NCBI GenBank assembly: GCA_036262935.1
Contig: DATAHW010000108.1
Location: 23,958-87,957 of the forward strand
Length of the DNA stretch: 64,000 nt
Origin: Gemmatimonadales bacterium
GTDB taxonomy: Bacteria > Gemmatimonadota > Gemmatimonadetes > Gemmatimonadales > GWC2-71-9
Direction: 5' to 3'
Part shown: one piece after another, positions 15,258 to 20,525 of the stretch
Position numbering within the stretch: position 1 is the first letter of the stretch
Layout of the letters: each line of letters opens with the position of its first letter
Made by a program: the position numbers and the translations under genes
Notes under the pieces: generated by a model
Seen by the model: only the letters and a program-made list of their open reading frames with translations
Database searches by the model: none
What the model was told of the DNA's origin: nothing

Positions 15258-16459
15258 CGGCGGGTCCCCGAGTCGGCGGCGGTGCCGGTCTTCCGCTCGT
15301 ATTCGAGCAGGTACTCCACGACGGCGTCGGCGATGGATGCCGCCAGCGCCTTCTGGCTCGTCCTCGTCGTCAGCAAGCGGCCGTCCTGCGGGTTGGTGCT
15401 GTAACCCATCTCCACCAGCACGGCCGGACGCCGGGCGGTGGTGAGCACCATGAAGCCGGCCTGCTTGACGCCACGGTTCTCGCTCGTGTGCGCCCCGTCG
15501 AGCCCGCGCTGGACCAGCTCGGCCAGCCGGGCCGACTCGCGCAGGTGCTCGTTGAGCTGGAGGTCCTTGACGATGAAGTCCAGACCACCGGCGGCGTCCG
15601 CCGGCGAGGGTCCGGTCTCGAACCGGACGGCATCGTTTTCCATCCTGGCCACGCGCGCCGCGTCTTCCGTCCGCGCCTCCGCCAGAAAGAACGTCTCGAA
15701 CCCGCGCACGTCCGTGTAGCCTCTCCGTCGCGCCAGCGAATTCACGTGCAGGCTGACGAACAGATCGCAGGCCTCGGTGCAGTACCCGCCCCGGTCGCCG
15801 AGCGCAATCAGCGTATCGGTGGTGCGCGTCATCCGGACGGTGATGCCGCGGCGCTCGAGCTCGTCCCTGAGCAGGAGGCCGATCTGCAGGGTCACGTCCT
15901 TCTCGTGGGTGCCGCGGGGAAAGAAGATGCCGGGATTGCCCGGGTCCACGCCGCCATGGCCCGGGTCCACGGTGACGACGTGCCCCGGACGCAGGCCGCT
16001 CGGAAGGCGAGCGGGGTTGCTGGCGGCGCGGCCGGCCAGGGTCGTCGTCCGCCCGCGCAGTTCCTCGAGCCGGGCACGCCGCGGATCCCACCGGTACCGC
16101 TCGGCGAGATAGTAGGGAAGGATTTCGGCGACGAACTGGTATGGGAGGAACAGGCTGTCGCCCTGAACGGATGCGGGACCCGCGAGCGGGAGAAGCTGGC
16201 TGCTGAAGAGGTACAGCGGCGCGCCCACGAGGAAGCGGAACGGCTGATCGGCGACGACGACCTCGGCCCAGCCCCCGTCGAGCCGGAGCCGCCCGTCGAG
16301 GGCCGCGATCAGCGGCGCGGCCGGCATCACCGGCGAGCCGGCCGCGTCGCTCCGGACGGGAATGCGCGCCTCGCCGCGCACCGCAGCGATCGTCACCTCC
16401 CGCGGCAGCGTCCCGGGGGAGCCGACCAGCGCCGCGGCCAGGGCAAGTTGGACGATCAC
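15254..16459 (-). CDS. N-acetylmuramoyl-L-alanine amidase (Amidase_3, AmiC-like with an N-terminal targeting domain)
   Basis: VVTVDPGHGGVDPGN, EKDVTLQIGLLLRDEL, DLFVSLHVNS and FMVLTTARRPAVLVEMGY motifs. The GTG start overlaps the smpB stop. Confidence 0.85.
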   Translation of the reverse strand: MIVQLALAAALVGSPGTLPREVTIAAVRGEARIPVRSDAAGSPVMPAAPLIAALDGRLRLDGGWAEVVVADQPFRFLVGAPLYLFSSQLLPLAGPASVQGDSLFLPYQFVAEILPYYLAERYRWDPRRARLEELRGRTTTLAGRAASNPARLPSGLRPGHVVTVDPGHGGVDPGNPGIFFPRGTHEKDVTLQIGLLLRDELERRGITVRMTRTTDTLIALGDRGGYCTEACDLFVSLHVNSLARRRGYTDVRGFETFFLAEARTEDAARVARMENDAVRFETGPSPADAAGGLDFIVKDLQLNEHLRESARLAELVQRGLDGAHTSENRGVKQAGFMVLTTARRPAVLVEMGYSTNPQDGRLLTTRTSQKALAASIADAVVEYLLEYERKTGTAADSGTRR

Positions 16460-16959
16460 CGGCGGCCCCGTACCGATACCGCCCTGGCCGTCTCGCGCTC
16501 GACGGCACGGCGCTTCAGGTCCTCGCGCTTGTCGTGCTGCTTCTTGCCCCGTCCCAGGGCGATCACGACCTTGGCCCGGCCGTTCTTGAAGTAGAGCTCG
16601 AGCGGCACCAGCGTGAGCCCCTTCTGTTCGACCGCCCCGATGAGCTTCTCGATCTCGCGCCGATGGAGGAGGAGCTTGCGGGTCCGGACCGGGTCGTGGT
16701 TATAGCGATTGCCCTGCTCGTACGGGGTGATGTTCATGCCGTCGAGGAACACCTCGCCGTTCCTGAGCCGCGCGTAGGCCTCCTTGATGGAGGCCTTGCC
16801 GGTGCGGAGCGATTTGACCTCGGTGCCGGTCAGCACGATCCCGCATTCCCAGGTGTCCAGGATATGGTAGTCATGCGTCGCCTTCGGGTTGCGGGCGACC
16901 GGCTGCTTGCGCTCGGCTGGCGGGGAGGTCTCGCGGGTCACGTCACCATCCTGAGCCAA
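16456..16959 (-). CDS. smpB: SsrA-binding protein
   Basis: VARNPKATHDYHILDTWECGIVLTGTEVKSLR...LLLHRREIEKL...GLTLVPLELYFKNGRAKVVIALGRGKK is canonical SmpB. Confidence 0.92.
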   Translation of the reverse strand: MAQDGDVTRETSPPAERKQPVARNPKATHDYHILDTWECGIVLTGTEVKSLRTGKASIKEAYARLRNGEVFLDGMNITPYEQGNRYNHDPVRTRKLLLHRREIEKLIGAVEQKGLTLVPLELYFKNGRAKVVIALGRGKKQHDKREDLKRRAVERETARAVSVRGRR

Positions 16960-17034: not shown

Positions 17035-17118
17035 GCCGAAGTGGTGGAACTGGTAGACGCGCTGCGTTCAGGGCGCAGTGGGCGCAAGCCCGTGCGGGTT
17101 CGAGTCCCGCCTTCGGCA
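17035..17118 (+). tRNA. tRNA-Leu (anticodon CAG), long variable arm, CCA not encoded
   Basis: Hand-folded as GCCGAAG/TG/GTGG-AACTGGTAGA-CGCG/CTGCG-TTCAGGG-CGCAG/TGGGCGCAAGCCCGT/GCGGG-TTCGAGT-CCCGC/CTTCGGC-A. All four stems are Watson-Crick. The layout matches E. coli tRNA-Leu(CAG). Confidence 0.9.
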
Positions 17119-17204: not shown

Positions 17205-18641
17205 TCAATACCGCGCCATCCCCGGTTCCACCCGCTCCGCCCAGGCATCGATGCCGCCGGCCAGGCTGCGGACCTTGCCGAAACCGGCGCCCCGCAGGAT
17301 CTCGAGCGCCTTCATCGAGCGGCTGCCGTGGTGGCACTGCGTGACGATCTCGGCGTGGCCGTCGAGCTCGTTCAGCCGATCGGGAAGTTGGCTCAGCGGG
17401 ATGAGCCGGGCGCCCTCGATGTGAGCGATCTCCCATTCGTGCGGCTCGCGGACGTCCAACAGTACCAGCTCGGCCCCATTGGCAGTGCGCTCCTGCTGGA
17501 ACTCCTCAACCGAAATCTCCGGCCCCGCATACTCCGGCTCCGCGCCGATCCCGCAGAAGGCCTGATAGTCGATCAGCTCGTGAATCGTCGGGTGGTCGCC
17601 GCAGATCGGGCAGTTCGGGTCCTTTCGCAGCTTGAGCTCGCGGAAGCGGAGCTTCAAGGCATCGAACAGCACCAGGCGGCCAACGAGCGAGTCACCCTCG
17701 CCGAGGATCCACTTGATCGTCTCGAGCGCCTGCAGGCAGCCGATGATCCCGGGCAGCACGCCCAGCACGCCGCCTTCGGCGCAGCTCGGCACCAGTCCCG
17801 GAGGCGGCGGCTCGGAGTAGAGGCAGCGATAGCACGGCCCTTCCTTGGCGTAGAATACCGACGCCTGTCCCTCGAACCGGAAAATGCTGCCGTAGACGTT
17901 CGGCTTCCCGAGCAGGACGCAGGCGTCGTTCACCAGGTAGCGGGTCGGGAAGTTGTCGGTGCCGTCCACGACGATGTCGTAGTCGCGCAGGATCTCGAGC
18001 GCGTTCTCCGAGGTAAGGCGGGTCTCGTGCCCGATCACGTTGACGTTGGGGTTGAGATCCAGGAGGCGCTCCCGGGCCGAGTCGAGCTTGGGGCGGCCGA
18101 GGCTGGCGGTGCCGTGCACCACCTGACGCTGAAGATTGGTGAGGTCGACCGCGTCGAAGTCCACGATGCCGATGGTGCCGACGCCCGCGGCCGCCAGATA
18201 GAGCGTGAGGGGCGAGCCCAGGCCGCCGGCTCCGATCGTGAGCACCCGCGCGGCCTTGAGCTTCCGCTGGCCTTCGAGGCCCACTTCCGGCAGCAGCAGG
18301 TGACGCGAGTACCGCAGCACCTCGGCATGGGAAAGCTTCGGCAGATCCGTCTCCGTCGCCGGGCGGCCGCCCGCGATGCTCGGCACGATGGTGAGCACGT
18401 CGCCCGCGCTCACCGCTGTGGCCGTGGACTCGAGCTGCCGGATGTCGGTGTCGTTGAGGTAGAGGTTCACGAAGTTCCGGAGCTTCCCGTCGTCCTGGAC
18501 GAGGTGGCGCCGGAGGCCGCCGTGGGCGGCGAGCAGCCCGTCCAGCACTTCACCCACGGTGGCGCCGGCCACGGGAACGGCGTCGCGCCCGCCGGTGAAG
18601 TTGCGGAGCGGGGTCGGAATGGAAACGGTCACGGACATCAT
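17205..18641 (-). CDS. fusion protein: CysO/MoaD/ThiS-like beta-grasp sulfur carrier (about aa 1-93, ending ...VPSIAGG), MoeB/ThiF-type adenylyltransferase (E1-like) and a C-terminal rhodanese domain (MoeZ-like)
   Basis: N-terminus MSVTVSIPTPLRNFTGG...FVNLYLNDTDIR...GDVLTIVPSIAGG closely resembles, from my recollection, M. tuberculosis CysO. It continues into LSHAEVLRYSRHLLLPEVGLEGQRKL...VLTIGAGGLGSP (ThiF), CxxC pairs (CYRC, CPIC) and rhodanese (LLDVREPHEWEIAHIEGARLIP...CHHGSRS). Confidence 0.85.
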   Translation of the reverse strand: MMSVTVSIPTPLRNFTGGRDAVPVAGATVGEVLDGLLAAHGGLRRHLVQDDGKLRNFVNLYLNDTDIRQLESTATAVSAGDVLTIVPSIAGGRPATETDLPKLSHAEVLRYSRHLLLPEVGLEGQRKLKAARVLTIGAGGLGSPLTLYLAAAGVGTIGIVDFDAVDLTNLQRQVVHGTASLGRPKLDSARERLLDLNPNVNVIGHETRLTSENALEILRDYDIVVDGTDNFPTRYLVNDACVLLGKPNVYGSIFRFEGQASVFYAKEGPCYRCLYSEPPPPGLVPSCAEGGVLGVLPGIIGCLQALETIKWILGEGDSLVGRLVLFDALKLRFRELKLRKDPNCPICGDHPTIHELIDYQAFCGIGAEPEYAGPEISVEEFQQERTANGAELVLLDVREPHEWEIAHIEGARLIPLSQLPDRLNELDGHAEIVTQCHHGSRSMKALEILRGAGFGKVRSLAGGIDAWAERVEPGMARY

Positions 18642-19069
18642 TACACCTCGCTGAGGACGTCGAGGGACTCGGGATGCATGAGCGGGCGCTCGTCATCCAG
18701 CACCCAGCTCGCCATGCTCGCACCCCGGCCACGGTCGATCTGCACGATCAGATAGCTGTACCACGGCCACGCGTGCTCGGCGTCGAACGGCGACGGCACC
18801 GCGGGATGGTCGGGGTGCGAGTGATAGTAGCCGACGATCTCGAGCCCGGCGGCGCGCACCTCCGCCTCGAGCCGCCTGAGATCGTCCGGGGCGATGAGAT
18901 AGCGGTGCGGATCGTCGGTGCGGCGGTTCACCGCCGGCGACAACCGGAGCACCTCCTTGGTGCCCGCCTCGGTCCGGCCCACCAGCACGCCGCAGCACTC
19001 GGCCGGGTAGGCGGCCTCGCCGTGGCCGCGGATCTCGTCGGCAAGGGCGCCGGGCAGCCGGAGCGTCAT
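18641..19069 (-). CDS. JAMM/Mov34 (MPN+) metalloprotease, Mec-like
   Basis: 142 aa from MTLRLPGALADEIR. It has a catalytic Glu (AYPAECCGVLVG) and the JAMM motif HSHPDHPAVPSPFD. ATGA overlap with the cysM stop and a 1-nt overlap with the next start. Confidence 0.85.
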   Translation of the reverse strand: MTLRLPGALADEIRGHGEAAYPAECCGVLVGRTEAGTKEVLRLSPAVNRRTDDPHRYLIAPDDLRRLEAEVRAAGLEIVGYYHSHPDHPAVPSPFDAEHAWPWYSYLIVQIDRGRGASMASWVLDDERPLMHPESLDVLSEV

Positions 19070-20001
19070 GGGCCGGCCCACCGATGCGGCTCGCTGAGAT
19101 AGCGGGCGCCGGTGTCGCAGCCGATGGCCACCACGTGGGCATCGGGCTCGCGCCGCACGATGTCCATCGCCGCGGCGACGGCCGCCCCGGCGGACCAACC
19201 GACCAGGAGGCCGCTGCTGCGCGCGAGCCAGCGCGCGCTCCGGTCGGCCAGCTCGGTGGGAATCTCGGCAATCACGTCGGGAACCCCGGGATCGAAGAGG
19301 GCGGGCGGCTCGCTGGTGCTGGCGAGGTGCTTGAGCCCTTCGAGCCCGTGGTAGGGCGAGTCGGGCTGCACCCCGACCAGCGTCACCGCCGGGTTGCGCT
19401 CCTTCAGGAAGCCCCCGGTGCCCATCATGGTTCCCGTCGTGCCCATTGCGGCGACGAAATGCGTAATCCGGCCGCCGGTCTGCGCCCACAGCTCGGGGCC
19501 GGTGGTTTCCCGGTGCGCCTGCGGGTTGGCCGGATTGCTGTACTGGTCGGCGTAGAAGTAGCGTGCGGGGTCGGCCCCGGCCAGTTCGCGGGCACGGCGT
19601 GAGGCGCCCTCGGTGCCCTCGAGCCGGTCGGTCACCACGACCTCCGCTCCGTACACCTCGAGCAGCGCGCGCCGCTCGGGACTGGCATTCCCCGGCAGGC
19701 AGATGGTGACCTCCACGCCCGCGGCGGCGCCGAGCATCGCGTAGGCGATCCCGGTGTTGCCGCTCGATGCATCCAGCAGCCGGCGGCCGGACAGCAGTCC
19801 GCGCCGGAGCGCGTCGCGCAGAATCGCACGTGCCGCGCGATCCTTGACGCTCCCGCCCGGGTTCATCCACTCCGCCTTGAGCCAGAACCGGCCCGCGCCG
19901 CCGGGAAGCTCGACCGGCAGCAGCGGGGTGTTGCCCACCGCCTGCCAGAGCGCCGGCTCCCGCACCAACGATAGTTCCCGCAGTTCCCGCGCTGCCGTCA
20001 T
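19066..20001 (-). CDS. cysM: PLP-dependent cysteine synthase, CysM-like (probably uses a thiocarboxylated carrier as sulfur donor)
   Basis: NPGGSVKDRAA (PLP lysine), SSGNTGIAYA and GTTGTMMGTGGFL motifs. I place the start at ATG 20001 (MTAARELRE) behind a GGGAGGG Shine-Dalgarno. The track start TTG 20016 lies in the upstream terminator U-tract. Confidence 0.85.
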   Translation of the reverse strand: MTAARELRELSLVREPALWQAVGNTPLLPVELPGGAGRFWLKAEWMNPGGSVKDRAARAILRDALRRGLLSGRRLLDASSGNTGIAYAMLGAAAGVEVTICLPGNASPERRALLEVYGAEVVVTDRLEGTEGASRRARELAGADPARYFYADQYSNPANPQAHRETTGPELWAQTGGRITHFVAAMGTTGTMMGTGGFLKERNPAVTLVGVQPDSPYHGLEGLKHLASTSEPPALFDPGVPDVIAEIPTELADRSARWLARSSGLLVGWSAGAAVAAAMDIVRREPDAHVVAIGCDTGARYLSEPHRWAGP

Positions 20002-20012
20002 CCGATTCCCTC

Positions 20013-20045
20013 CCAAACGAAAAACCCGACCGGACGGGTCGGGTT
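20013..20045 (-). terminator. Rho-independent terminator/attenuator between the Rrf2 regulator gene and cysM
   Basis: Minus strand reads AACCCGACC-CGUCC-GGUCGGGUU followed by UUUUCGUUU (9-bp stem, 5-nt loop, U-tract). The cysM Shine-Dalgarno follows immediately. Confidence 0.6.
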
Positions 20046-20066
20046 GCGAGCGAAACCACCGCGGCG

Positions 20067-20525
20067 CTAGCTCCCGGACGAGATCCCGACCAGCTCCTGG
20101 ACCTGTGGCTCCTGTTTCATCAGGTCGGCGAGGGAGATGCTCGCCAGCAGCTCGTCCACCCGCTGCTGGAGCGCCTGCCAGACCGGCCGGATGCTGCAGG
20201 TGGCCCCGGGGCTACATCGCACGACATCGACCGGGTGGGTGTCGCAGTTCACTTCGAACGTCTGATGCTCGGACGCGGACATGACATCGTGGACCGAGAT
20301 GGCGGCGGGCTCACGGGCCAGGAAGTAGCCGCCCTTGGCACCACGGACGCTTTCCACCAGCCCGGCGCGCCTGAGCCGGAGCAGGATCTGCTCGACATAG
20401 TCGGCCGGCAGACGCTCGACGTCGGCGAGCTCCCGCGCGGCCACGGGACCGTTCCCCGCCCGGCCGCGACGAGCCAGATGAAGCGAGATGATCAGACTGT
20501 ATTCGGTCCAGGTGGTGACCCGCAT
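20067..20525 (-). CDS. Rrf2-family transcriptional regulator (CymR/IscR-like)
   Basis: MRVTTWTEYSLIISLHLAR...VAARELADVERLPADYVEQILLRLRRAGLVESVRGAKGGYFLA is an Rrf2 winged helix. C-terminal Cys residues (CDTHPVDVVRCSPGATC) are possible cluster ligands. Confidence 0.85.
   Translation of the reverse strand: MRVTTWTEYSLIISLHLARRGRAGNGPVAARELADVERLPADYVEQILLRLRRAGLVESVRGAKGGYFLAREPAAISVHDVMSASEHQTFEVNCDTHPVDVVRCSPGATCSIRPVWQALQQRVDELLASISLADLMKQEPQVQELVGISSGS

Follow-up and report, generated by a model that had tools for sequence, protein, structure and literature searches.

The 64,000-nucleotide (nt) stretch of a Gemmatimonadales genome analysed here (the window; contig DATAHW010000108.1, positions 23,958 to 87,957) carries a cluster of four co-directional genes on its minus strand. 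They encode an Rrf2-type regulator, a cysteine synthase of the CysM type, a JAMM protease, and a protein in which a CysO-like sulfur carrier is followed by a MoeZ-like activating enzyme (Table 1). This gene content, given in a preliminary description of the sequence, was reproduced by the open reading frame (ORF) and Pfam calls. The cysM stop and the JAMM start overlap by 4 nt as ATGA, and the JAMM stop and the fusion start overlap by 1 nt as TAATG, the latter as read before, so the last three genes are probably translationally coupled. If the second ATG is taken as the start of the fusion gene (compare relatives that begin with MSVTV), a 2-nt gap to the JAMM gene replaces the overlap. The start listed for cysM is a TTG at 20016, and the true start is probably the in-frame ATG at 20001.

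Table 1 Features of the gene cluster and its surroundings, in coordinates of the window.
Feature	Position	Strand	Details
Rrf2 regulator gene	20525-20067	minus	152 amino acids (aa); Pfam Rrf2 6.5e-32; first gene of the cluster
Cysteine-rich segment of the Rrf2 protein, aa 94-110	20196-20246	minus	C94-x9-C104-x5-C110
Terminator-like hairpin	20023-20045	minus	9 pairs, 6 of them G-C, then a T-run
PALP/CysM cysteine synthase gene	20016-19066	minus	Pfam PALP 4.1e-62, 210.6 bits
Prok-JAB/JAMM protease gene	19069-18641	minus	142 aa; Pfam Prok-JAB 1.4e-26, 93 bits against a cutoff of 25
Fusion gene (CysO-like carrier, linker, MoeZ-like E1, rhodanese)	18641-17205	minus	478 aa
CysO-like beta-grasp sulfur-carrier domain, aa 1-92	18366-18641	minus	ends VPSIAGG; Pfam ThiS aa 6-92
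Gly91-Gly92 codons	18371-18366	minus	
Linker RPATETDLPK, aa 93-102	18336-18365	minus	10 aa; predicted scissile bond Gly92/Arg93 between nt 18366 and 18365
MoeB/ThiF adenylation (E1) domain, aa 103-348	17598-18335	minus	Pfam ThiF aa 111-345, 2.2e-83, 279.5 bits
Rhodanese domain, aa 379-469	17235-17507	minus	active-site loop C436-HHGSR; Pfam Rhodanese 5.9e-18, 65.6 bits
tRNA-Leu(CAG)	17035-17118	plus	87 nt past the end of the fusion gene
Next minus-strand ORF	16456-16959	minus	

The N-terminal domain of the fusion protein matched Pfam ThiS with an E value of 2.9e-10 (41 bits against a cutoff of 22.5). In phmmer comparisons it matched the CysO protein of Mycobacterium tuberculosis (3dwg_C, E 1.9e-20) and the ThiS/MoaD-family protein 4n6e_B (E 5.2e-21). 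Both alignments ran end to end (2-92 against 1-93), and the internal AGG fell on the C-terminal AGG of the two proteins. By these alignments the fused domain appears to be CysO-like from its first to its last residue, with no sign of a divergent ubiquitin-like (Ubl) domain. Pfam ThiS, ThiF and Rhodanese all lie in one ORF. The preliminary description had rightly recognized a CysO/MoaD/ThiS carrier followed without a stop by a MoeZ-like protein, but had given the carrier about 93 residues up to its GG; the domain stood, and the position of the glycines did not, since they are residues 91 and 92 and Arg93 is the first residue of the linker. The junction reads ...DVLTIVPSIAGG / RPATETDLPKLSHAEVLRYSRH... 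(carrier end / linker start), and the semi-tryptic peptide predicted for the end of a released carrier is QLESTATAVSAGDVLTIVPSIAGG. With GG at residues 91-92 of 478 and no stop behind it, the gene product does not have the free C-terminal GG of CysO-type carriers, and it could gain one only after proteolysis.

The remainder of the protein carries the motifs of an E1 enzyme: GAGGLG at 137-142 (the nucleotide loop), the zinc motifs CYRC at 270-273 and CPIC at 344-347, and the conserved SCAEGG at 286-291. Matches of the E1 part among PDB proteins were Uba4 (3.7e-63) and MoeB (1jw9, 3.4e-60), and also ThiF. Two NCBIfam models scored below their cutoffs (NF005902 MoeZ, 492.7 against 647 bits; NF005646 MoeB, 525.2 against 633), and NF006444 MoeB was the sole one above its cutoff (475.8 against 449 bits). 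Judged by these matches, the activator part is an E1-rhodanese of the MoeB/MoeZ group without an exact equivalog assignment.

The read-through behind GG was reproduced in independent data. Twenty soil-metagenome runs contain this stretch, and Logan contigs of four independent runs were compared over positions 18200-18700, where they were identical, with 0 differences and 0 gaps. The stop codon that the preliminary description feared might be masked near GG is absent, and a hidden stop, or a sequencing or assembly error after GG, is ruled out by these four assemblies together with the many genomes carrying the junction (see below). An internal translation start giving a separate carrier is likewise excluded, because the fusion ORF has no stop after GG; moreover, the linker ahead of the E1 helix contains no ATG, GTG or TTG.

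We surveyed homologues with a 128-aa junction query spanning GG. It matched 563 proteins; every inspected one runs past GG into the E1 domain, and the short matches were contig-end or frameshifted fragments. A scan of one genome per species found the junction in at least 597 species-representative genomes, the best 80 of which belong to Gemmatimonadales and to many Acidobacteriota classes. The Acidobacteriota among these 80 were Vicinamibacteria, Blastocatellia, Bryobacterales, Thermoanaerobaculia, Pyrinomonadaceae and Chloracidobacterium. Full-length relatives, taken as the best 120 of the window protein and the best 120 of an acidobacterial one, were fused in 240 of 240 cases, with lengths of 474-486 aa and the domains PF02597, PF00899 and PF00581. 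The junction was found in hundreds of protein clusters at 50-98% identity. Database names of the relatives are 'molybdopterin-synthase adenylyltransferase MoeB' or 'sulfur-carrier protein adenylyltransferase/sulfurtransferase', which leave the fused carrier unnamed. The arrangement is genuine, and it is common in two phyla of soil bacteria.

Three metagenome-assembled genomes with this operon are labelled as other taxa, namely Cyanobacteriota (L017), Bifidobacteriaceae (L052) and Enterobacterales (L071). Their operons are 57-59% identical to the query and typical of Acidobacteriota, and the labels are probably binning or taxonomy errors.

Gene-context analysis was performed on 80 related loci of about 12 kb each, 74 of which had enough upstream sequence. 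The JAMM gene lies directly upstream of the fusion gene, apparently coupled to it in translation, in 69 of the 74 (64 counted automatically, four in which the ORF overlap fell just beyond the counting window, and one in a frameshifted long-read assembly), and the order cysM-JAMM-fusion was found in at least 56. Two loci from long-read metagenome-assembled genomes, L001 and L030, carry frameshifts. The co-occurrence of the CysO-MoeZ fusion with JAMM genes, which the preliminary description had proposed to survey, and its view of the JAMM gene as an adjacent one both held among these relatives. We also searched for a second carrier. Neither the window (searched with a hidden Markov model of the carrier domain, E up to 10) nor the 80 related loci yielded another CysO-like ORF, and none of the window ORFs ending in GG is a beta-grasp protein. 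The separate free CysO that would have spoken against the earlier interpretation was thus not encountered in the window or in the flanks of the 80 related loci.

Conservation changes abruptly at GG. In an alignment of 64 full-length proteins from Gemmatimonadales and Acidobacteriota, P87, A90, G91 and G92 were invariant; identity between the two phylum groups was only 59-64%. Across 76 loci, column entropy was 0 at P-S-x-A-G-G and 2.3-3.1 bits at the next eight positions (P1'-P8'), and 13-34 residues separated GG from the RYSRH motif of the E1 domain. The P1' residue after GG was S, A, T, V, R, N or G among related loci. An invariant GG with a freely varying linker fits a reactive end under constraint, with a flexible and dispensable spacer behind it, and this pattern supports the earlier interpretation. 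The AlphaFold2 model shows three confident domains, including one of beta-grasp size, and a per-residue confidence (pLDDT) below 50 for residues 88-98, which comprise the carrier tail and the linker; the model indicates that this segment may be an exposed, flexible cut site.

Natural split versions of the gene were also found. The carrier is a separate gene in three loci, with moeZ restarting at once from a Shine-Dalgarno sequence and start codon of its own, and the stop codon comes 1-4 residues after GG. The junctions read GGA GGA CGC TAA GCC ATG in L053 and GGA GGA CGC TGA ACG GTG in L076, where the carrier ends in GG-R, and GGC GGC AAC GGG GAC AGG TAA ATG in L075, where it ends in GG-NGDR. 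In L053 (6250-6270) and L076 (6255-6275), the Gly-Gly codons GGAGGA form a perfect Shine-Dalgarno sequence 9 nt before the moeZ start codon. In its E1 domain, the split locus L075 shares 89% identity with the fused locus L041, and L053 and L076 have their nearest E1 relatives in fused Bryobacteraceae loci (75-77% identity). Fusion and fission thus occurred at least twice among close relatives, and fused and free carriers interconvert. The earlier placement of the carrier boundary at GG agrees with these natural versions. From such sequences the fused domain and the free carrier appear functionally interchangeable, and even the free carriers of the split loci are predicted to need trimming behind GG.

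The CysO domain had 4667 relatives in a representative library of 1.84 billion proteins (50% identity). The best 150 of these comprised at least 25 clear E1 fusions, 9 proteins ending at GG and 31 with short tails after GG; the rest had longer extensions after GG or were fragments lacking the GG motif. These fused and free counts are only qualitative, because the library is rich in truncated and frameshifted fragments. Close CysO-family domains with another partner behind GG occurred in eight proteins (P0470, P0416, P0481, P0385, P0428, P0424, P0445 and P0402), where the partners were TusA, rhodanese-ThiF in swapped order, rhodanese alone, tandem ThiS, NIL, glyoxalase and a phosphatase-like domain. 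In this carrier clade, an internal GG with a partner looks like a general theme, and some of the non-E1 fusions could be assembly chimeras. Several free CysO relatives (P0429, P0432, P0459, P0384, P0452, P0461 and P0475) have GG-C or Cys-rich tails, for example GG-CCCCCCL, GG-CCVMTCGT and GG-CCALI. With GG-Cys encoded in the gene, such an end looks like CysO-Cys, the adduct hydrolysed by Mec.

The JAMM protein encoded upstream of the fusion has a complete MPN+ metal site, formed by Glu24 and H83-S-H-x7-S-x2-D96 (HSHPDHPAVPSPFD, residues 83-96). Its best PDB match was the Mov34/MPN protein 2kcq of Salinibacter ruber (2.3e-27), and PfJAMM1 also matched (3e-7). S. ruber is among the organisms with an operon of ThiS/MoaD, E1-rhodanese, JAB and cysteine synthase (type 4c of Iyer et al. 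2006). As in Mec+-type systems, the JAMM is encoded together with the carrier and the cysteine synthase, in overlapping genes.

E1 enzymes of the MoeB/ThiF type adenylate the free carboxylate of a C-terminal glycine, and Mec hydrolyses CysO-Cys behind that glycine (PMC3227635); linear Ubl fusions are JAMM substrates too (PMC8832034). Adenylation is impossible on an internal GG, so if the fused domain is a carrier, its cleavage would be obligatory. We consider it very likely that the 478-aa precursor is cut behind GG by one agent or another, and likely that the neighbouring Mec-like JAMM makes this cut after Gly92. The stronger arguments for cleavage come from the split variants, from the sharp change in conservation at GG and from the failure to find another carrier in the window and the 80 related loci. 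In this proposal, residues 1-92 of the precursor polyprotein would be the CysO-type sulfur carrier of the operon. The coupled JAMM would cut Gly92/Arg93 in the flexible linker and release a carrier of about 10 kDa with a free Gly-Gly carboxylate together with the MoeZ-like E1-rhodanese. The E1 domain would then adenylate the carrier C-terminus, which the rhodanese persulfide would turn into a thiocarboxylate, and CysM would move the carrier sulfur onto activated serine (O-phosphoserine or O-acetylserine), giving carrier-Cys. Hydrolysis of the Gly-Cys bond by the same JAMM would yield free cysteine and regenerate the carrier. One protease would thereby perform the same chemistry twice, acting behind GG a first time to mature the carrier and again in each catalytic cycle.

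Several observations weigh against this proposal. The CysO cycle calls for a Mec-type protease in any case, so JAMM synteny alone proves no maturation role, and five of the 74 loci (L022, L026, L040, L050 and L059) lack an adjacent JAMM gene. The CysM protein falls short of the cysM equivalog cutoff, and its sequence resembles E. coli CysM more than the M. tuberculosis enzyme. The predicted template modelling score (pTM) of the AlphaFold2 model is 0.59, and the inter-domain geometry of the fusion is uncertain. The window represents 64 kb of the genome, and a free carrier or another protease may be encoded elsewhere. For this fusion family we infer the cleavage, the identity of the protease and the later cycle. 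In M. tuberculosis, the cleavage of MoaX is attributed to an as yet unidentified protease, so enzymes other than a neighbouring JAMM can make such a cut.

The MoaX precedent also favours the reading that another protease, or autoproteolysis, cuts behind GG, and that the JAMM only frees cysteine from carrier-Cys. The loci without an adjacent JAMM agree with it, and the catalytic cycle already explains why a JAMM is present (PMC3227635). We nevertheless regard it as unlikely, for cleavage of the peptide bond right after this GG is already a Mec-type reaction, linear Ubl fusions are known to be cut by JAMMs, and the JAMM and fusion genes are overlapped and coupled. The range of P1' residues further speaks against an intein-like N-to-O/S shift, which needs Ser, Thr or Cys; intein-like self-cleavage is unlikely, with P1' often being A, V or R. 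It is quite unlikely that the beta-grasp domain is never released and instead serves in cis docking, as a chaperone or as an autoinhibitory pseudo-substrate, with a free carrier elsewhere serving CysM. The Ubl-ThiF fusions of Iyer et al. 2006, which are accompanied by a solo ThiS in the operon and whose fused Ubl was given another role, lend it some plausibility, as does the rest of the genome beyond the window. Opposed to it, the fused domain is CysO itself and no divergent Ubl, and neither this operon and its flanks nor the 80 related loci contain another carrier. Close split relatives stop just behind the same GG, and the absolute conservation of A-G-G next to a free linker fits a reactive terminus. 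A sequencing or assembly artefact that hides a stop after GG is vanishingly improbable. Nothing was found in its favour as such; some database relatives are frameshifted or truncated fragments, and the loci L001 and L030 carry frameshifts, but the four independent metagenome assemblies are identical and the junction recurs across the species genomes scanned.

A further idea, which we regard as doubtful, is that the fusion provides a zymogen-like control. The uncleaved CysO domain would sit in the Ubl site of its own E1 as a pseudo-substrate without a carboxylate to adenylate, and the E1 would then be barred from other carriers such as MoaD. The JAMM cut would be an irreversible on-switch, possibly gated by the metal or redox state and by the Fe-S-type Rrf2, and would deliver the docked carrier 1:1. 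If true, a bacterial protease of the deubiquitinase type would license an E1.

Maturation by the neighbouring JAMM can be compared with several known systems. The thiocarboxylate-dependent cysteine pathway of M. tuberculosis employs CysO, CysM, Mec+ and MoeZR (Burns 2005, summarised in PMC3227635), and the same four activities (carrier, pyridoxal phosphate (PLP)-dependent cysteine synthase, JAMM and E1-rhodanese) are encoded here. The CysO of M. tuberculosis is made as a free protein with GG at its end, whereas here the carrier is the N-terminus of the activator and a maturation cut would be needed. Furthermore, moeZR is unlinked there (Rv3206c against Rv1334-1336) and lies inside the operon here, which also has an Rrf2 regulator attached and a CysM nearer to that of E. 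coli.

The closest parallels in processing are the fusions of MoaD with MoaE. MoaX of M. tuberculosis, a MoaD-MoaE protein, is active only after a cut at Gly82/Ser83, and the Deinococcus radiodurans fusion DR2607 is cut by the JAMM DR0402 (PMC8832034). As in the fusion described here, a ThiS/MoaD-family carrier precedes its partner enzyme in the chain, and its Gly-Gly is internal. The fusions differ in that partner, here the activating E1 (MoeZ) and there the synthase subunit that uses the thiocarboxylate, and in the pathway, which is cysteine synthesis here and molybdopterin synthesis there. In addition, the protease gene here is adjacent and coupled, its product is expected to act again in each cycle, and the system is known from its genes alone. 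Trimming of short tails is also on record: QbsD/QbsE and CxnF/CxnE are proposed trimming pairs (with the tails CF in QbsE and a decapeptide in CxnE), and Mec was reported as needed for the maturation of the MetO carrier. In these systems, GG is followed by extra residues whose removal by the JAMM of the cluster, before MoeZ-type activation, has been proposed or reported, and the carriers of L053, L076 and L075 are of exactly this type. Extensions of this type have 1-10 residues, whereas the 'extension' here is a whole 386-residue enzyme.

The Ubl-ThiF fusions of Campylobacter and its relatives (Iyer, Burroughs, Aravind 2006) also place a beta-grasp domain N-terminal to a ThiF-type adenylation domain. 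Their Ubl domains are described as distinct from ThiS, and they were given a non-carrier role because a solo ThiS accompanies them in the operon; here, in contrast, the fused domain is a genuine homologue of CysO whose GG is conserved, and the surroundings yielded no solo carrier. Ubiquitin precursors (polyubiquitin and ubiquitin-ribosomal protein fusions) offer a eukaryotic parallel, with an N-terminal beta-grasp modifier freed directly behind Gly-Gly by deubiquitinases (PMC11354881). Their partners are ribosomal proteins or more ubiquitins and not an E1, and the carrier released here would carry sulfur and, unlike ubiquitin, is not known to modify proteins.

The novelty of a JAMM-processed carrier fusion proved smaller than the preliminary description had implied. 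JAB peptidases were predicted in 2006 to cut fused ThiS/MoaD domains free in general (Iyer et al. 2006), and the principle was shown for the MoaD-MoaE fusions. What differs from the known cases is that the carrier is fused to its own activating E1-rhodanese. No described CysO-MoeZ or Ubl-E1-rhodanese fusion was found in the searched literature, which omits much of the subscription literature.

If the proposed cut is true, one small JAMM would mature a Ubl carrier that is made fused to its own E1 and would also recycle that carrier in every turnover, and a widespread natural example would be added to the prokaryotic antecedents of ubiquitin-precursor processing. The operon is standard equipment in Acidobacteriota and Gemmatimonadota, two of the most abundant soil phyla. 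The precursor and its protease also make a simple pair for studying JAMM specificity behind Gly-Gly. Because the fusions are named only as MoeB or adenylyltransferase, pathway predictors that seek a separate cysO would miss the thiocarboxylate route, and thousands of genomes that probably have it for cysteine would be called negative.

In a few lineages, the MetM/MetO route to homocysteine may be overlooked in the same way. In L022 (2953-7446), and also in L040 and L059, which have the same linker type, the fusion gene directly follows the homoserine kinase gene thrB and a gene for a PLP enzyme of the threonine-synthase family. These three loci are from Acidobacteriota, and the fusion there does not lie behind cysM-JAMM. 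They resemble the recently described MetM/MetO route, where homocysteine is made from O-phosphohomoserine by a ThrC-like enzyme together with a thiocarboxylated carrier, and by this analogy the fused carrier may serve methionine synthesis.

The CysM protein of the operon belongs to the CysK/CysM family of fold-type II PLP enzymes, and its Schiff-base lysine is K58 in NPGGSVKDR. Its best PDB matches were E. coli/Salmonella CysM (1.7e-71, 244 bits) and M. tuberculosis CysM (4.5e-45, 157 bits), and it scored 304.9 bits with TIGR01138 cysM, below the cutoff of 394.2. As it is nearer to E. coli CysM than to the O-phosphoserine-specific CysM of M. tuberculosis, the carbon substrate could be O-phosphoserine or O-acetylserine, and the use of protein thiocarboxylates may extend beyond the M. 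tuberculosis-type CysM lineage.

The Rrf2 protein scored above the cutoff of the NCBIfam model rrf2_super and below those of IscR and CymR. Its three spaced cysteines lie in what we take to be the region where IscR/NsrR-type relatives bind an Fe-S cluster. Among the related loci, 21 have the Rrf2 gene upstream of cysM and 12 have it downstream of the fusion gene; the upstream position is that of Gemmatimonadales and the downstream position that of many Acidobacteriota. The Rrf2 stop and the cysM start are 50-65 nt apart, and between them lies the terminator-like hairpin, which could terminate the Rrf2 gene or act as an attenuator before cysM; chance alone would give one such site in this region. 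An Rfam scan of the window found no riboswitch in the operon. The tRNA-Leu(CAG) gene beyond the end of the fusion gene was the sole Rfam/ARAGORN match in the 64 kb, and the next minus-strand ORF, judged by eye from its translation, presumably encodes a protein resembling SmpB (tmRNA-binding protein).

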